A DNA stretch of 64,000 nucleotides from Escherichia phage 132. Below are positions 1-38,148 of the stretch, piece by piece. The position numbers and the translations under genes are program-made. Each line of letters begins with the position of its first letter. The first letter of the stretch is position 1. The notes beneath the pieces were generated by a model, which was not told the DNA's origin, did no database searches, and worked only from the letters and a program-made list of their open reading frames with translations. The stretch lies in the sequence record MZ417521; one strand, 5' to 3'.

Positions 1-578
1 TCTTTTTTAACATCAAGCACTTGGTTTTGTGAATTTAATTCACGTATTAGTGCTTTATTAAGCTTATCCATTTCAGCTAATGTTCCTACCTCGAGCAGGT
101 CTTCGACGAGTTTTCTTCTTGCAGGAGTGGATAGGCCCATGAAAGGGGTATATCCAGCCGTGCCGAGTACGACGATCTGTTTGAAACTGGCGTATGACAT
201 TCCGATAAGCTGTTCAAATTCTGCTTGGAAATCTTTACTGCTGGCAGATTCATTAAGACGTGTACCGTTAACGGTGATTTCGAAAACATTTGGTTTTTGT
301 CCTCTTTTGATATAGTACTTTTTCTCATCATATTCCATCCACAGTTCAACTAAAAGCTCTTTCTTATTTGTGCTGTTTATTAATTGGCCTTTCTTTACAT
401 CACGAAATGGCTTGCCAAAAAGCCCAAATGTGATGGCTTCTAACATAGTAGACTTACCACCACCATTTCGTCCAGTAATAAGAGTTTTTTGAACCTTATC
501 TAATTGAATGTCAATAGGATTTCCACCTACTGACATTATATTTTGATATCTAACTCGGTTTAGTTTAAAATTCTTCAC
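1..578 (-). CDS. 46: Recombination nuclease subunit gp46 (Rad50/SbcC-like ATPase), N-terminal ~192 codons; gene runs off the window start
   Basis: Not in the ORF track. Minus-strand translation from GTG at 576-578 (AGGAA SD upstream) reads MKNFKLNRVRYQNIMSVGGNPIDIQLDKVQKTLITGRNGGGKST (Walker A) with no stop to position 1; lies downstream of gene 47 as in T4. Confidence 0.75.
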   Translation of the reverse strand, partial: MKNFKLNRVRYQNIMSVGGNPIDIQLDKVQKTLITGRNGGGKSTMLEAITFGLFGKPFRDVKKGQLINSTNKKELLVELWMEYDEKKYYIKRGQKPNVFEITVNGTRLNESASSKDFQAEFEQLIGMSYASFKQIVVLGTAGYTPFMGLSTPARRKLVEDLLEVGTLAEMDKLNKALIRELNSQNQVLDVKK

Positions 579-36053: not shown

Positions 36054-36317
36054 TTATTTCATATTATTGAAATATTCTTCTGCGATTTCGTCGTTATCAT
36101 GGTAAACTTTAGAAGACAGTTTAACATAACCTTCAGCAGTGAACATGTTAATCACAACCTTTACAGTATACCACTGACCATCTTCATTACCCATTACTGC
36201 GTAAGTTTCAAACATCGGATGGTCAGGACCGATAACTTTAATATCATTCACCGTACGACCGAAATCTTCTGAAACACATTTCATAAAGAAGTTGAACAGT
36301 TCGCCGTAATTATCCAT
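36054..36317 (-). CDS. Hypothetical 87-aa protein
   Basis: Start at internal ATG (MDNYGELFNFF...); the ORF-track 43-aa N-terminal extension is a read-through of the early promoter. Confidence 0.5.
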   Translation of the reverse strand: MDNYGELFNFFMKCVSEDFGRTVNDIKVIGPDHPMFETYAVMGNEDGQWYTVKVVINMFTAEGYVKLSSKVYHDNDEIAEEYFNNMK

Positions 36318-36360
36318 TTTATTCTCCAAGTTGTTTTCTGTATCAGTAGTTGATATTGAT

Positions 36361-36390
36361 ATAGTACCATGGAAGAACAGGGATGTAAAC
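36361..36390 (-). promoter_or_regulatory. Early sigma70-type promoter
   Basis: Minus strand GTTTAC-N18-TGG-TACTAT; upstream of gene 36054..36317. Confidence 0.6.
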
Positions 36391-36521
36391 CATTTTGTGA
36401 AAAATTTTTTTAAAGTTTTAGGGAATTCTAGGGCAGGGAGGGGCAATTAAAGGATAGGATAATATATTATAAAGGGTAGAAACTAAATGATGCCTAGAGA
36501 GGTCCAAAAAGGCCTAGATAC

Positions 36522-36550
36522 TAAAAAGCCCCAACCTTTCGGCTGGGGCT
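36522..36550 (-). terminator. Intrinsic terminator at the distal end of the tRNA / small-RNA region
   Basis: AGCCCCA ... UGGGGCU hairpin followed by UUUUUA on the minus strand. Confidence 0.5.
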
Positions 36551-36856
36551 AAGCCTTGCGGCAACCTTGTCGGGGTTCCACCTGCTAAGGCAAGTGTTTG
36601 TACGAAACGCCGGGATTCGAACCCGGTTATTGAGCAGTTGACGCTACTCAATATTTTTAAAAGGCCATATCTCGACCATATCCGAACGTTCCGTCAAAAA
36701 CGCTACTCGGCTTACGGCAAAGATATTTCCTCGAATCGATAATTCGGTGCGCCGTTTCTGCTGTGATAGTAAAGAATCAGAACACAGTAAAACTGTGGGA
36801 GAAACTATACTCCAGGGAACATCAGTCCGACGACTTACCGGTAGCGACCCGGTTTC

Positions 36857-37207
36857 TTAGTATTCTTTTAAAGCATCAACCTGTCCACGACGTTTACGCC
36901 ATAAATCAATTACTTCATACGCAGATTCAGCATTTCGAATTGGACGGCATTTATATAAAGACTTGTGATTTTGATATTGTGTAGATAATGGAATTTTATC
37001 TAAAAGGTCTTTACGTTCAAAGTATTCGTAACCATCTAAACCAAATGAACGATTTTTGAGAAATTGCCAATGACCGTATTCGTTTTCGACATAAACATAA
37101 TCTGCATGCTGATAAAGTAAATTAATTACACGTTCAGAAATAACAGTGTCATTATGATTAAAATAGAATGTTAAATCATGAACTACTAAATAAACATTAC
37201 CTTTCAT
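36857..37207 (-). CDS. Hypothetical 116-aa protein directly downstream of tRNA-Arg
   Basis: ATG at 37205-37207 with GAGGAAAAT SD, 17 nt after the tRNA-Arg 3' end. Confidence 0.55.
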   Translation of the reverse strand: MKGNVYLVVHDLTFYFNHNDTVISERVINLLYQHADYVYVENEYGHWQFLKNRSFGLDGYEYFERKDLLDKIPLSTQYQNHKSLYKCRPIRNAESAYEVIDLWRKRRGQVDALKEY

Positions 37208-37223
37208 ATTTTCCTCACTTAAT

Positions 37224-37299
37224 TGGTCGAGGCAGTAGGGATCGAACCTACGACCTAGGACTTAGAAGGTCCTTGCTCTTCCTTCTGAGCTATGCCTCG
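37224..37299 (-). tRNA. tRNA-Arg (anticodon TCT)
   Basis: Cloverleaf folded by hand: D stem GCTC/GAGC, anticodon loop CTTCTAA, T arm GTAGG-TTCGATC-CCTAC, 3' CCA encoded. Confidence 0.8.
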
Positions 37300-37303
37300 G
37301 ATT

Positions 37304-37378
37304 TGGCGGACGTGATAGGATTCGAACCTATAACCAATCGCTTAACAGGCGATCGCTCTGCCATTGAGCTACACATCC
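37304..37378 (-). tRNA. tRNA-Asn (anticodon GTT)
   Basis: Acceptor GGATGTG/CACGTCC, anticodon stem ATCGC/GCGAT with loop CTGTTAA, T loop TTCGAAT, CCA encoded. Confidence 0.75.
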
Positions 37379-37382
37379 AAAT

Positions 37383-37469
37383 TGGTGGGGAGTGATGGAG
37401 TCGAACCACCCGAGTCGCAATGACAATGGATTTACAGTCCACACCGCTACCTCTACGGGATAACTCCCC
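37383..37469 (-). tRNA. tRNA-Tyr (anticodon GTA), long variable arm
   Basis: Acceptor GGGGAGT/ACTCCCC, anticodon loop CTGTAAA, long variable arm, T loop TTCGACT, CCA encoded. Confidence 0.7.
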
Positions 37470-37478
37470 AAATTAATT

Positions 37479-37553
37479 TGGTGGCCCTGGGTGGAATTGA
37501 ACCACCATCTGGCGATTATGAGTCGCTTGCTTGAACCTTCCAGCTACAGGGCC
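37479..37553 (-). tRNA. tRNA-Ile/Met (anticodon CAT; likely the lysidine-modified AUA-reading Ile as in T4)
   Basis: Acceptor GGCCCTG/CAGGGCC, anticodon loop CTCATAA, CCA encoded; 1 nt from tRNA-Thr. Confidence 0.75.
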
Positions 37554-37554
37554 T

Positions 37555-37630
37555 TGGTGCTGATTGACGGAATCGAACCGCCGACGTCCTCATTACAAGT
37601 GAGGTGCTCTACCTACTGAGCTAAATCAGC
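37555..37630 (-). tRNA. tRNA-Thr (anticodon TGT)
   Basis: Acceptor GCTGATT/AATCAGC, anticodon stem-loop CCTCA-CTTGTAA-TGAGG, CCA encoded. Confidence 0.8.
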
Positions 37631-37635
37631 AAAAC

Positions 37636-37725
37636 TGGCGGAGGCGATAGGATTTGAACCTATGAGTCGCCGGAGCGACTGCCGGTTTTCAAGACCGGTG
37701 CATTAAACCACTCTGCCACGCCTCC
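37636..37725 (-). tRNA. tRNA-Ser (anticodon TGA), long variable arm
   Basis: Acceptor GGAGGCG/CGCCTCC, anticodon loop CTTGAAA, long variable arm, CCA encoded. Confidence 0.8.
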
Positions 37726-37727
37726 AG

Positions 37728-37801
37728 TCTCCGCGGCAGGATTTGAACCTGCGACATTCTGCTCCCAAAGCAGACGCTCTACCAAACTGAGCTACACGGA
37801 G
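37728..37801 (-). tRNA. tRNA-Pro (anticodon TGG)
   Basis: Anticodon stem TCTGC/GCAGA with loop TTTGGGA, T loop TTCAAAT; CCA not encoded; 2 nt from tRNA-Ser. Confidence 0.75.
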
Positions 37802-37811
37802 TAAATTAAAT

Positions 37812-37885
<74 letters not shown>

Positions 37886-37890
37886 AAATT

Positions 37891-37977
37891 TGGTGCGAGA
37901 AGTGGGACTCGAACCCACAAGGAAATCATTCCGCAGCATTTTAAGTGCTGTGCCTTTACCAATTTGACCATTCTCGC
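37891..37977 (-). tRNA. tRNA-Leu (anticodon TAA), long variable arm
   Basis: Acceptor GCGAGAA/TTCTCGC, anticodon loop CTTAAAA, long variable arm, CCA encoded. Confidence 0.8.
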
Positions 37978-37978
37978 G

Positions 37979-38051
37979 CTGGGAATAAAGGACTCGAACC
38001 TTTGCATCCTGGAATCAAAATCCAGTGCCTTACCAACTTGGCTAATTCCCA
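37979..38051 (-). tRNA. tRNA-Gln (anticodon TTG)
   Basis: Acceptor TGGGAAT/ATTCCCA, anticodon stem-loop CTGGA-TTTTGAT-TCCAG; CCA not encoded; 1 nt from tRNA-Leu. Confidence 0.8.
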
Positions 38052-38120: not shown

Positions 38121-38146
38121 ATAATAACAAATAATTCTTAAAGCAT
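38121..38146 (-). promoter_or_regulatory. Middle-promoter-like element upstream of the tRNA cluster
   Basis: Minus strand ATGCTTTA box, 12 nt, TATTAT; located about 70 nt upstream of tRNA-Gln. Confidence 0.35.
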
Positions 38147-38148
38147 AT

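Follow-up and report, generated by a model that had tools for sequence, protein, structure and literature searches.

Downstream of the tRNA genes of Escherichia phage 132 lies a stretch of DNA with no evident protein-coding gene, and the question that it raises is what it encodes. We addressed it within a window of 64,000 nucleotides (sequence record MZ417521), assigned to Tequatrovirus on the basis of its 98% identity to phage SP1. A preliminary description, made from the sequence alone, had taken 36447-36856 for a 410-bp non-coding stretch with tRNA-like elements, several hairpins and an intrinsic terminator at its end, and had suggested that it might be the equivalent of the T4 locus for two small stable RNAs. 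The T4 RNAs in question, rnaC (species 1) and rnaD (species 2), have been known since the 1970s. Direct alignment with the T4 genome (NC_000866) and the layout of the phage T2L record (AJ880101) bear this suggestion out: the locus is the distal end of the phage tRNA operon and consists of the orthologues of T4 rnaD and rnaC, a structured trailer and an intrinsic terminator [Table 1]. The absence of a credible ORF across 36447-36856 also held, those of at least 20 aa on either strand being short (21-45 aa) and mostly starting with TTG or GTG. The non-coding extent, on the other hand, had been drawn too short: given that the e.8 homologue starts at ATG 36317, and not at the TTG 36446 of the mechanical ORF list, the intergenic region is 36318-36856. 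The terminator was found as well, at 36550..36527 (minus strand), but the left part of the interval, 36447-36526, lies beyond it, outside the RNAs, and forms the upstream region of the gene that follows. The sigma-70/T4 early-type promoter-like site likewise belongs to the e.8 homologue and not to the RNAs. Protein-family searches with the flanking ORFs returned only PHROGs without assigned function.

Table 1. Features of the rnaD-rnaC locus and of its surroundings, in window positions.
Feature	Positions	Strand	Description	Basis or context
MotA-type middle promoter match	38121..38147	-	TATGCTTTA, 12 nt, TATTAT; 70 nt upstream of tRNA-Gln	Pattern match only
tRNA array	37224..38051	-	10 genes (Gln, Leu, Gly, Pro, Ser, Thr, Met, Tyr, Asn, Arg)	ARAGORN, Rfam
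116-aa ORF	36857..37207	-	phrog_3355 ('trna.2' in the T2L record)	Between tRNA-Arg and rnaD; absent in T4
rnaD homologue	36746..36860	-	T4 species 2 RNA, ~115 nt	Alignment to T4 and T2L rnaD
rnaD 5' hairpin	36837..36853	-	ACCGG-GUCGCUA-CCGGU, 5-bp stem, 7-nt loop	Fold, comparison
rnaD variable apical domain	36761..36820	-	T2L/SP1-type cassette (GGAG..CUCC and CACAG..CUGUG hairpins)	Comparison
rnaC homologue	36601..36739	-	T4 species 1 RNA, 139 nt by the T4 RefSeq convention	T4 alignment, covariance model
rnaC acceptor-like stem, 5' strand	36732..36738	-	nt 2-8, CGAUUCG	Pairs with nt 131-137, CGUUUCG (36603-36609)
rnaC long hairpin P2	36662..36731	-	nt 9-78	Covariation; MFE in six divergent sequences
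rnaC hairpin P3	36628..36653	-	nt 87-112, 10-bp stem, 6-nt loop	Covariation
rnaC T-arm	36610..36626	-	nt 114-130, CCGGG-UUCGAAU-CCCGG	Sequence, covariation
Operon 3' trailer	36551..36600	-	Three small hairpins including a GCC-GCAA-GGC tetraloop hairpin	Conserved in T4
Predicted intrinsic terminator	36521..36550	-	AGCCCCAGCC-GAAA-GGUUGGGGCU, then UUUUU	Consensus scan; conserved in T4
Promoter-like site (sigma-70/T4 early type)	36361..36389	-	TTTACA, 17 nt, TG-n-TACTAT; A/T tract before	Upstream of the e.8 homologue
e.8 homologue	36054-36317	-	phrog_2678	ATG start 36317

The minus strand aligns base for base to T4 rnaD, rnaC, trailer and terminator, downstream of the 10-tRNA array. Window rnaC (36601-36739) differs from T4 rnaC (70908-71046 of NC_000866) at 3 positions in 139 nt, while window rnaD (~36746-36860) matches T4 rnaD (71053-71171) in its 5' ~45 nt and 3' ~25 nt and has a divergent centre. 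The order and strand of the two RNAs (T4s001 and T4s002 of NC_000866), their flanks (tRNA-Arg upstream, e.8 downstream), the trailer and the terminator are those of T4; the window differs in carrying another cassette in the rnaD centre (~55 nt), in the ORF that separates rnaD from tRNA-Arg, which rnaD directly follows in T4, in the absence of segB, and in having tRNAs Met, Tyr and Asn in place of T4 Ile. In T2L the layout is, as in the window, tRNA-Arg, 116-aa ORF, rnaD, rnaC and e.8, and the rnaD central cassette is shared; differences are limited to a few positions in the RNAs (134/138 identical for rnaC and 111/114 for rnaD) and to a tRNA-Thr found where T2L has the trna.1 ORF. The RB33 record has rnaD and rnaC annotated at the same place. 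The locus is therefore already known, being annotated in the T4, T2L and RB-series records, and the curators of T4, T2L and RB33 label it as RNAs. It is kept in ~800 phage records, in most of which rnaC and rnaD are unannotated or lie under spurious 'hypothetical proteins'. The covariance search against Rfam that the preliminary description had recommended passed the 10 tRNAs and nothing else at the gathering score across the whole window, and gave no credible match at E values up to 10 in 36200-37300; with no family above the gathering score at the locus, rnaC and rnaD seem to have no entry in Rfam 15.

The tRNA-like elements of the preliminary description are real, but they are parts of one coherent tRNA-like molecule, rnaC, rather than scattered fragments; the T-arm-like element reported on the minus strand is present at 36626..36610 and not at 36612-36626. 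The hairpins seen there were equally recovered, rnaC folding far better than shuffled sequences (MFE -52.4 kcal/mol, z = -4.4; 0/200 shuffles as good) and the trailer giving z = -3.8. By the T2L convention rnaC is 36599-36738 (140 nt, from the first paired base), and covariance model R1 scores the window copy at 162 bits. In the rnaC architecture the two ends of the molecule pair with each other in a 7-bp acceptor-like stem, which is stacked beside the 5-bp T-arm, and the body consists of P2 (~26 bp, bent) and P3 (10 bp), whose 6-nt loops are mutually complementary. P2 is made of five sub-helices with internal loops between them and a conserved 3-nt GUA bulge, and ends in the apical loop UUGACG (U43-G48, 36692-36697); the P3 loop, CGUCAA (C97-A102, 36638-36643), is its exact reverse complement. 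A K-turn at the GUA bulge was considered and rejected, there being no tandem G-A pairs after the bulge.

This architecture was evaluated on an alignment of 28 distinct rnaC sequences from at least eight Tevenvirinae genera; compensatory changes, which the preliminary description had proposed to look for across T4-like genomes, were found at 20 base pairs. Overall, 95.4% of the 1512 cells are paired, as opposed to 36-45% when the partners are slid, and the 20 pairs with both-side changes compare with a shuffle mean of 8.8, the observed count being reached in none of 500 shuffles. In the acceptor-like stem, pair 4:135 changes from A-U to G-C in 12 of the 28 sequences, and the two U-U mismatches of T4-type sequences give way to seven standard pairs in Tegunavirus, where 5:134 and 6:133 are U-A and C-G. 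P2 has 97-100% of cells paired with both-side changes at 7 pairs, and P3 shows compensatory changes at 8 of its 10 pairs. The T-arm stem is 100% paired and covaries (CCGGG/CCCGG, CCUGG/CCAGG, CUUGG/CCAAG, CUGGG/CCCAG), its loop being non-canonical in some lineages (UGCAUGC, UGCAUC). The two loops are complementary at 6/6 positions in 28/28 sequences, and the Tegunavirus-type sequences carry a single compensatory change in this pairing, C47-G98 to U-A; perfect complementarity together with this one event supports a predicted 6-bp kissing interaction, which may lock the body into two side-by-side helical stacks of ~22 bp each. The same architecture is the MFE structure in six divergent homologues, and indels are confined to the P2/P3 linker and one basal internal loop. 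We note that P2c and P2d are subject to ascertainment bias, because the most conserved helices sat in the search pattern with which some of the homologues were collected.

The likeness of rnaC to tRNA has definite limits. A complete canonical tRNA, which the preliminary description had been unable to fold, is indeed absent: ARAGORN found the 10 tRNAs of the array and none in the rnaC/rnaD stretch, the Rfam tRNA model (RF00005) gave no match at rnaC, and the only Rfam match at the locus was a tRNA-Sec hit whose 18.2 bits (E = 1.3) fall short of the gathering score of 47. With canonical tRNA (RF00005), and with tRNA-Sec or class II tRNAs, rnaC has in common a 5-bp T-stem that directly continues a 7-bp acceptor-like stem, the UUCGAAU T-loop, a gene-like placement within tRNA arrays, where only a few nt separate neighbours, and a presumed maturation by RNase P. 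Unlike a canonical tRNA, it has neither a D-arm nor a 7-nt anticodon loop nor an above-threshold score, is 139 nt long and does not encode CCA (..GUACAAA). The non-canonical T-loops of some lineages weaken a strict tRNA-mimic reading, and the U-U acceptor mismatches of T4-type sequences are a point against our explanation of rnaC. The weak Rfam match uses a tRNA-Sec-like fold whose acceptor strand is internal (ACGGAACG/CGUUUCGU), which we rejected as the conserved structure: 92% of its cells are paired, it shows no compensatory change, it is broken in Tegunavirus and it is 8-29 kcal/mol worse than the conserved rnaC fold. It could nonetheless form as a transient alternative. A 95-nt 'tRNA-Met' called by ARAGORN in one homologue (L018) has the same start and seems to use this tRNA-Sec-like fold.

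For rnaD, which the T2L depositors annotated 'by 5'- and 3'-end homology' (36745-36860 in that style), the fold of all 15-17 variants consists of a 5' hairpin and a long rod-like hairpin, and the apical hairpin of the rod is swapped between phages as discrete cassettes. Three further discrete sequence types occupy the apical site in other phages, each with a 9-14 bp apical hairpin. The 5' hairpin is invariant across all collected copies, the collecting pattern itself having been built on that hairpin; since it is palindromic, it also produced a spurious plus-strand 'terminator' call at 36837-36853. Taken alone, the rnaD segment folds unexceptionally relative to shuffles (z = -1.0). Its 5' end overlaps the TAA stop (36857-36859) of the 351-bp ORF that splits it from tRNA-Arg in the window, and likewise in T2L, a difference in context and not in the RNA. 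Given that rnaD here follows an ORF and not a tRNA, its 5' end cannot come from 3' processing of tRNA-Arg as in T4.

The distribution of the two RNAs shows them to be separable modules. In Moon-, Karam-, Winkler- and Tegunavirus rnaD is absent and rnaC lies between two tRNAs with only a few nt on either side, sitting in the tRNA arrays of these genera like a tRNA gene. In Dhakavirus IME08 and five IMG/VR contigs (L092-L096) rnaC is precisely missing and rnaD is joined directly to the trailer; the trailer is kept in this position in phages without rnaC, except in IMG/VR contig L091, where rnaD is followed by neither rnaC nor trailer sequence. Pattern scans of viral contigs, metagenomes and genomes, which included one rnaC pattern with the kissing-loop region left free and one pattern aimed at rnaD, together with covariance-model searches, found wider homologues in T-even relatives only; the loosest pattern gave ~60 chance loci, none of them confirmed by the covariance model. 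The single bacterial match, in a Pirellula MAG, is a 29-nt chance hairpin. Taken as a whole, the identity of the locus together with the secondary structure of rnaC leaves us in little doubt, and we consider the combination of four-way junction, kissing loop and rnaC/rnaD modularity to be likely.

The tRNA array, upstream on the same strand, is probably co-transcribed with rnaD and rnaC. In T4, a primary transcript of ~1.75 kb starts from a middle promoter and ends after the species I RNA gene, and the MotA-type match in the window agrees with the middle promoter described there (PMC2330249). Just upstream of rnaD, inside the ORF, a search for MotA or late promoters returned only a 7/8 TATAAATG at 36955-36948, and there is no convincing internal promoter for rnaD within the ORF. 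The terminator hairpin (10-bp stem with 7 G-C pairs, GAAA loop, then TTTTT) is predicted to act independently of Rho: it is GC-rich, precedes a U-run and closes the transcription unit. According to the T4 literature of the 1970s-80s on the species 1 and 2 RNAs, the 5' end of rnaC is made by RNase P, and processing also involves RNase III and 3' trimming; modified T/pseudouridine is described as well. By analogy with this established T4 biology, and with somewhat less certainty than for identity and structure, a single long transcript would begin at the middle promoter that precedes tRNA-Gln, cover the tRNAs, the 116-aa ORF, rnaD and rnaC, and end at the terminator. RNase P would recognise the acceptor/T-arm minihelix of rnaC and cut at its 5' end, a cut that would also free the 3' end of rnaD; for the 3' ends, endonucleases would cut within the trailer and exonucleases would then trim the RNAs as far as the stems, and the compact folds may account for the metabolic stability of both products. 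T4 RNAC has been seen by northern blot, and RNAC and RNAD are both classed as late-accumulating (PMC9697503).

The locus itself is minor, being the expected rnaD-rnaC pair of a T2/T4-like phage; rnaC and rnaD are, however, among the oldest sequenced RNAs still without a function, which reviews report as unknown. The comparative model offers handles on them, namely the covariation-backed tRNA-like four-way junction with its loop-loop lock, rnaC as a unit of tRNA arrays elsewhere, the independent occurrence of rnaD and rnaC, and the exchange of rnaD cassettes; these enable loop and compensatory mutants, precise deletions on natural hosts and defences, and a covariance model for annotation. Our best inference is that rnaC mimics the acceptor/T-arm 'top half' of a tRNA and is processed by RNase P. 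Several non-tRNA substrates of this enzyme, among them tmRNA, phi80 M3 RNA, the P1/P7 C4 antisense precursor and plant-virus 3' tRNA-like structures (PMC11143913), similarly place an acceptor/T-arm-like minihelix on a non-tRNA body and share the concept of a host tRNA-maturation machinery that sets the ends of a viral or regulatory RNA. They have no sequence or covariance-model similarity to rnaC and no Rfam match there, the rnaC body being a four-way junction with an internal kissing loop, and tmRNA and C4, unlike rnaC, have a known function. A role of rnaC in decoding or mRNA pairing is unlikely. YrlA RNAs, which are bacterial Y-RNA-like RNAs with tRNA-mimicking modules bound by Ro/Rsr, resemble rnaC in being stable non-coding RNAs that combine a tRNA-like acceptor/T-arm domain with a long helix, the latter serving in YrlA as a protein-binding platform. 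They may be the nearest analogy for a scaffold or decoy, by analogy only: rnaC has no Rfam match to YrlA and no evident Ro-binding helix and, to our knowledge, E. coli K-12 lacks Rsr.

Along these lines, we tentatively propose that rnaC may bind a protein recognising tRNA acceptor/T-arm domains and act as a decoy or scaffold in the contest between phage and host over tRNAs. T4 deletions that remove the rnaC/rnaD genes are viable. A further, speculative proposal is that rnaC, and perhaps rnaD, could act as RNA in counter-defence or in setting host range. As a self-contained tRNA-like module that the tRNA machinery of the host processes and stabilises and that its kissing loop locks, rnaC would move among T-even tRNA arrays as a tRNA gene does and would titrate or misdirect a host protein with affinity for tRNA acceptor/T-arm domains, such as a tRNA-targeting immune nuclease or a tRNA-end-modifying toxin; the exchange of apical-hairpin cassettes in rnaD would result from diversifying selection in that conflict. 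Phage tRNA arrays are reported to counter tRNA-cleaving defences such as Septu (PMC13096335), and every line of a T4-like phage convergently acquired an rnaD SNP during adaptation to a semi-permissive E. coli host (PMC12685909); both are leads for a counter-defence role, not proof of it.

Alternatively, rnaC and rnaD might be functionless, decayed tRNA genes or by-products of tRNA-operon processing that are kept by a conserved operon. It is true that rnaC retains only an acceptor-like stem and a T-arm, that the centre of rnaD is highly variable, that rnaC is cleanly missing in Dhakavirus and rnaD in Moon-, Karam-, Winkler- and Tegunavirus, and that function is reported as unknown, but decay is improbable in view of the strong purifying selection on rnaC structure (20 compensatory pairs, 95% pairing), the constraint on its length and indel positions over at least eight genera, the persistence of loop complementarity through a double change, and the retention of rnaC as a separate unit at differing positions in differing tRNA arrays. 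The maintenance of the rnaD apical hairpin in four unrelated sequence versions and the convergent SNP in adapting phage lines (PMC12685909) argue in the same direction for rnaD. No more probable is a role in cis, whereby the structures would punctuate the tRNA/ORF transcript and cap its 3' end, providing entry points for RNase P or other nucleases and a block to 3' exonucleases, the released fragments being by-products. Such a role would fit the operon 3'-end position in Tequatrovirus beside the conserved structured trailer and terminator, the retention of these two elements where rnaC is missing, and the mRNA segment (116-aa ORF) immediately upstream in the window phage; a 3' cap would, however, be pointless in the four other genera in which rnaC is internal to the tRNA array, a simple hairpin would be enough for protection and leaves the covarying four-way junction and loop-loop pairing unexplained, and the T4 RNA accumulates as a discrete stable species.

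Less probable still is that rnaC and/or rnaD act in trans as sRNAs that base-pair with host or phage mRNAs through conserved single-stranded segments. Candidate segments exist in the invariant unpaired stretches of rnaD (loop GUCGCUA and 5' AAGAAA) and of rnaC (linker UUUUAAAAAUA and the GUA bulge), and the RNAs are loosely referred to as 'small regulatory RNAs' in the literature (PMC9697503), but the two most conserved loops of rnaC are accounted for by their mutual pairing, there is no known target, and T4 has, according to a review, no characterised trans-acting sRNA. Blastn moreover found no similarity in E. coli genomes, a search that short seeds would escape, and the processed RNAs have no Hfq-type 3' end and no terminator U-tail. 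Finally, that the locus encodes a small protein instead of RNAs is hardly credible: mechanical ORFs of 29-45 aa are present, several GenBank records put 'hypothetical proteins' over the homologous stretch and a 34-aa antisense TTG ORF recurs in T4-type sequences, but this last ORF owes its recurrence solely to the near-invariance of the sequence in close relatives, has a different start and length in Moon- and Karamvirus and does not occur in Tegunavirus, no small ORF is conserved across genera in the alignment, 1-2-nt indels occur, T4, T2L and RB33 are annotated with RNAs, and substitutions track base-pair compensation and not codon wobble.

The locus is the T4-type rnaD/rnaC region, which is real and was previously known. 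In the T4 RefSeq record, rnaD (species 2 RNA, 119 nt) and rnaC (species 1 RNA, 139 nt) lie directly after tRNA-Arg and are followed by about 280 bp and e.8; alignment shows the window to be near-identical to T4 from the start of rnaD to the region upstream of e.8, including rnaC, the trailer (the operon 3' segment between rnaC and the terminator) and the terminator; only about 55 central nt of rnaD diverge. T2L (AJ880101; SegB study, PMC2330249) shares the layout of the window, namely tRNA-Arg, a 351-bp ORF, rnaD lying over the ORF stop codon, rnaC and e.8, with identities of 111/114 for rnaD, 134/138 for rnaC and 334/351 for the ORF, and the RB33 record annotates both RNAs. The suggestion in the preliminary description that this was the equivalent of the T4 locus for two small stable RNAs is therefore correct, and the locus already known. 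The T-arm-like element that it reported was recovered as CCGGGTTCGAATCCCGG (36626..36610, minus strand), as was the intrinsic terminator, and no canonical tRNA was called at the locus, where the only Rfam match was to tRNA-Sec, below threshold (18.2 bits vs 47). The non-coding interval placed at 36447-36856 is genuine, its ORFs of at least 20 aa on both strands being short (21-45 aa) and mostly with TTG or GTG starts; its limits are wider than proposed, since the e.8 homologue begins further downstream.

Features of the locus in the window (rnaC elements in rnaC numbering, nt 1 being window position 36739)
Feature	Position	Strand	Basis or remark
tRNA array, ten genes (Gln, Leu, Gly, Pro, Ser, Thr, Met, Tyr, Asn, Arg)	37224-38051	minus	ARAGORN and Rfam
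116-aa ORF (phrog_3355), between tRNA-Arg and rnaD	36857-37207	minus	
rnaD	about 36860..36746	minus	transferred from T4 alignment
rnaC	36739..36601	minus	transferred from T4 alignment
rnaC acceptor-like stem	nt 2-8 with 131-137		consensus fold
rnaC long hairpin P2 (five sub-helices and GUA bulge)	nt 9-78		consensus fold
rnaC linker	nt 79-86		consensus fold
rnaC hairpin P3	nt 87-112		consensus fold
rnaC T-arm	nt 114-130		consensus fold
Trailer	36600..36551	minus	transferred from T4 alignment
Terminator	36550..36527	minus	transferred from T4 alignment; 10-bp GC-rich hairpin, then TTTTT
e.8 homologue (phrog_2678)	start ATG 36317	minus	start as in T4, not TTG 36446

Every relevant feature of the locus is on the minus strand. 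Many Tequatrovirus (T4-like) genomes share 96-98% identity with the surrounding 1 kb, Escherichia phage vB_EcoM_SP1 being the closest; 776 phage records match. Across the full 64 kb, Rfam returned the ten tRNAs above thresholds and no further family; neither rnaC nor rnaD has an Rfam family. Most of the approximately 800 genomes carrying the locus lack rnaC/rnaD annotation, and many GenBank phage records place "hypothetical protein" CDSs over the two RNAs (e.g. NHEP10, L089 780-908). The ORF upstream of rnaD, without a Pfam match, is missing from T4 and is named "trna.2" in T2L. The initial bases of rnaD run over the TAA stop of this ORF, which places a stretch of mRNA inside the stable-RNA precursor. 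The interval between the rnaC terminator and e.8 is an insertion/deletion hotspot: SP1 carries there an extra 187-aa ORF (phrog_2280; L002 2258-2821) and RB33 an extra 474-bp ORF (L111 988-1461), whereas neither the window (about 36450-36520) nor T4 has one.

Homologues of rnaC were collected by low-stringency BLAST, pattern scans of viral, metagenomic and genomic collections, and a covariance model (R1), yielding 39 copies (28 distinct) from Tequatro-, Mosig-, Gapriver-, Moon-, Karam-, Winkler- and Tegunavirus and further unclassified contigs. Their consensus fold forms standard pairs in 95.4% of 1512 cells, a share that falls to 36-45% on shifting the 3' partners 1-3 columns, and both sides change at 20 pairs (shuffle mean 8.8; 0/500 shuffles reach 20); an independent MAFFT alignment gave the same picture. 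The cross-genus alignment called for in the preliminary description thus revealed compensatory changes in rnaC. Two U-U mismatches interrupt the acceptor stem of T4-type sequences, and in Tegunavirus all seven of its pairs are standard (CAGUCCG/CGGACUG in phiR1-RT); in 12 sequences G-C replaces A-U at pair 4:135, and the T-stem occurs as CCGGG/CCCGG, CCUGG/CCAGG, CUUGG/CCAAG and CUGGG/CCCAG. When six divergent sequences were folded separately, the consensus architecture was the minimum-free-energy structure in all six. That rnaC is a decaying pseudogene is disfavoured because its structure is strongly constrained across at least eight genera.

The loop of P2 (U43-G48, UUGACG, 36697-36692) is the exact reverse complement of that of P3 (C97-A102, CGUCAA, 36643-36638). 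These loops, both of 6 nt, are mutually complementary in 28/28 distinct sequences, a set gathered in part with patterns that included the distal P2 helix, and they co-change to UUGAUG and CAUCAA in Tegunavirus-type rnaC, the one compensatory event in favor of the pairing. The P3 stem covaries at 8 of its 10 pairs beneath a sequence-invariant loop, an invariance explained by the loops pairing with each other. Judged from helix lengths, P3, the kiss and the distal P2 helix would form about 22 stacked pairs and the other P2 helices about 20 pairs plus internal loops; with the GUA bulge acting as a turn, the rnaC body would comprise two stacks lying side by side, with both ends closed. Indels between genera fall only in the linker and in one basal internal loop, consistent with the geometric constraint of such a body. 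The 9-mer GAGUAGCGU occurs twice in rnaC (nt 32-40, 36708-36700; nt 91-99, 36649-36641), each copy being the 5' side of the helix leading to one kissing loop; an internal duplication or a common recognition motif could account for the repeat.

A tRNA-Sec-type fold, in which the internal strand nt 46-53 (ACGGAACG) pairs with the 3' end of rnaC, was rejected as a conserved structure. This alternative helix is 92% paired with no compensatory change, in 11 sequences gains an A-C mismatch at the very position of compensation in the conserved fold, is disrupted in Tegunavirus and costs 8-29 kcal/mol. A 95-nt "tRNA-Met (CAT)" called by ARAGORN in an IMG/VR contig (2700989062; L018 8491-8585) is the 3' two-thirds of an rnaC homologue; the call begins where the tRNA-Sec match does and seems to use the internal acceptor strand too. 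Such calls may raise tRNA counts in some T4-like genomes.

All rnaD variants share a 5' hairpin (ACCGG-GUCGCUA-CCGGU, 36853-36837) and a long rod closed by GUCGUCG/CGGCG-AC, the apex of which falls into four discrete, unrelated sequence types, each a 9-14-bp hairpin; that of the window is of the T2L/SP1 type. Compensatory changes at 4 pairs lend the rod some support; the window rnaD alone folds no better than shuffles (z = -1.0). Columns 41 and 111 of the rnaD alignment (window about 36821 and 36754) covary, with U-A in 8 sequences and A-U in 5. In phage BW1, a convergent adaptive rnaD SNP was located "at approximately position 41" (PMC12685909), which may correspond to column 41. The rnaD loop region CGCUAC (within 36837-36853) is a perfect complement of rnaC G34-G39 (GUAGCG, 36701-36706), made up of the GUA bulge and three bases. 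This complementarity makes an intermolecular contact possible, probably not an essential one, because each RNA lacks the other in some genera.

The tRNA arrays of Moon-, Karam-, Winkler- and Tegunavirus include rnaC without rnaD, placed 4-6 nt past the CCA of the preceding tRNA and about 6 nt ahead of the next. Conversely, Dhakavirus IME08 (L090 1495-1700) and five IMG/VR contigs precisely lack rnaC (about 146 nt) and have rnaD, preceded by tRNA-Arg or another sequence, joined straight to the trailer and terminator (..GCGCACCGAA|CACTTGCC); in a sixth contig, rnaD is followed by neither rnaC nor trailer sequence. The two RNAs are thus independent modules, and rnaC behaves as a tRNA gene unit. 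Its internal position in the arrays of the first four genera also argues against rnaC being a simple 3' protective hairpin.

The 5' end of T4 species 1 RNA is an RNase P product, the trailer is cut by RNase III and other nucleases, and 3' ends are trimmed by exonucleases. In T2L, rnaC is annotated from its first paired base (C2) to ..GUACA, ends compatible with an RNase P cut at the acceptor-stem base. No CCA is encoded (..GUACAAA; ..GUUCAAA in Tegunavirus). With an ORF, not a tRNA, adjoining rnaD on its 5' side in the window, 5' processing of rnaD must differ from that in T4; a pattern search for an internal rnaD promoter found none convincing. By pattern match only, a MotA-type middle promoter lies 70 nt upstream of tRNA-Gln (38147-38121, minus strand), and an exact T4 late-promoter consensus, TATAAATA, within the ORF upstream of the array (38397-38390, minus strand). 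In T4, a primary transcript of about 1.75 kb runs from such a middle promoter to beyond the species I gene (PMC2330249); RNAC was seen by northern blot, and both RNAs are classed as late-accumulating (PMC9697503).

No ORF, small ones included, is conserved across genera over the rnaC/rnaD stretch; a recurrent 34-aa antisense TTG ORF is confined to near-identical T4-type sequences and is altered or lost in other genera. No similarity to the locus was found in 5,426 complete E. coli genomes, and the sole bacterial pattern match, a 29-nt chance hairpin, was discarded. Reviews and recent papers report the function of both RNAs as unknown (PMC3014915, PMC9697503, PMC12685909); what makes the locus of interest is less its presence in phage 132 than the question of function and the structural and comparative leads gained here. 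In our preferred reading, rnaC would imitate the tRNA top half, formed by acceptor and T-arm. Its minihelix would recruit the tRNA-maturation machinery, which would set the rnaC ends and confer stability, while the locked two-stack body may offer a specific protein-binding surface as a decoy or scaffold. A role in host range or counter-defence is speculative and rather unlikely; leads are the convergent rnaD SNP, which every line of a T4-like phage acquired during adaptation to a semi-permissive host (PMC12685909), and the countering of tRNA-cleaving defences by phage tRNA arrays (PMC13096335).

The tRNA-Tyr (GUA) of the window (37383-37469, minus strand) scores 30.2 bits in Rfam against a threshold of 29, the other nine tRNAs scoring 59-74, and its counterpart in the near-identical SP1 genome is labeled "tRNA-Pseudo-GTA". 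Since tRNA-Tyr is cleaved in its variable loop by the Septu defence, which T6 evades by amplifying the tRNA-Tyr that it encodes (PMC13096335, 2026), this atypical phage tRNA may merit attention.
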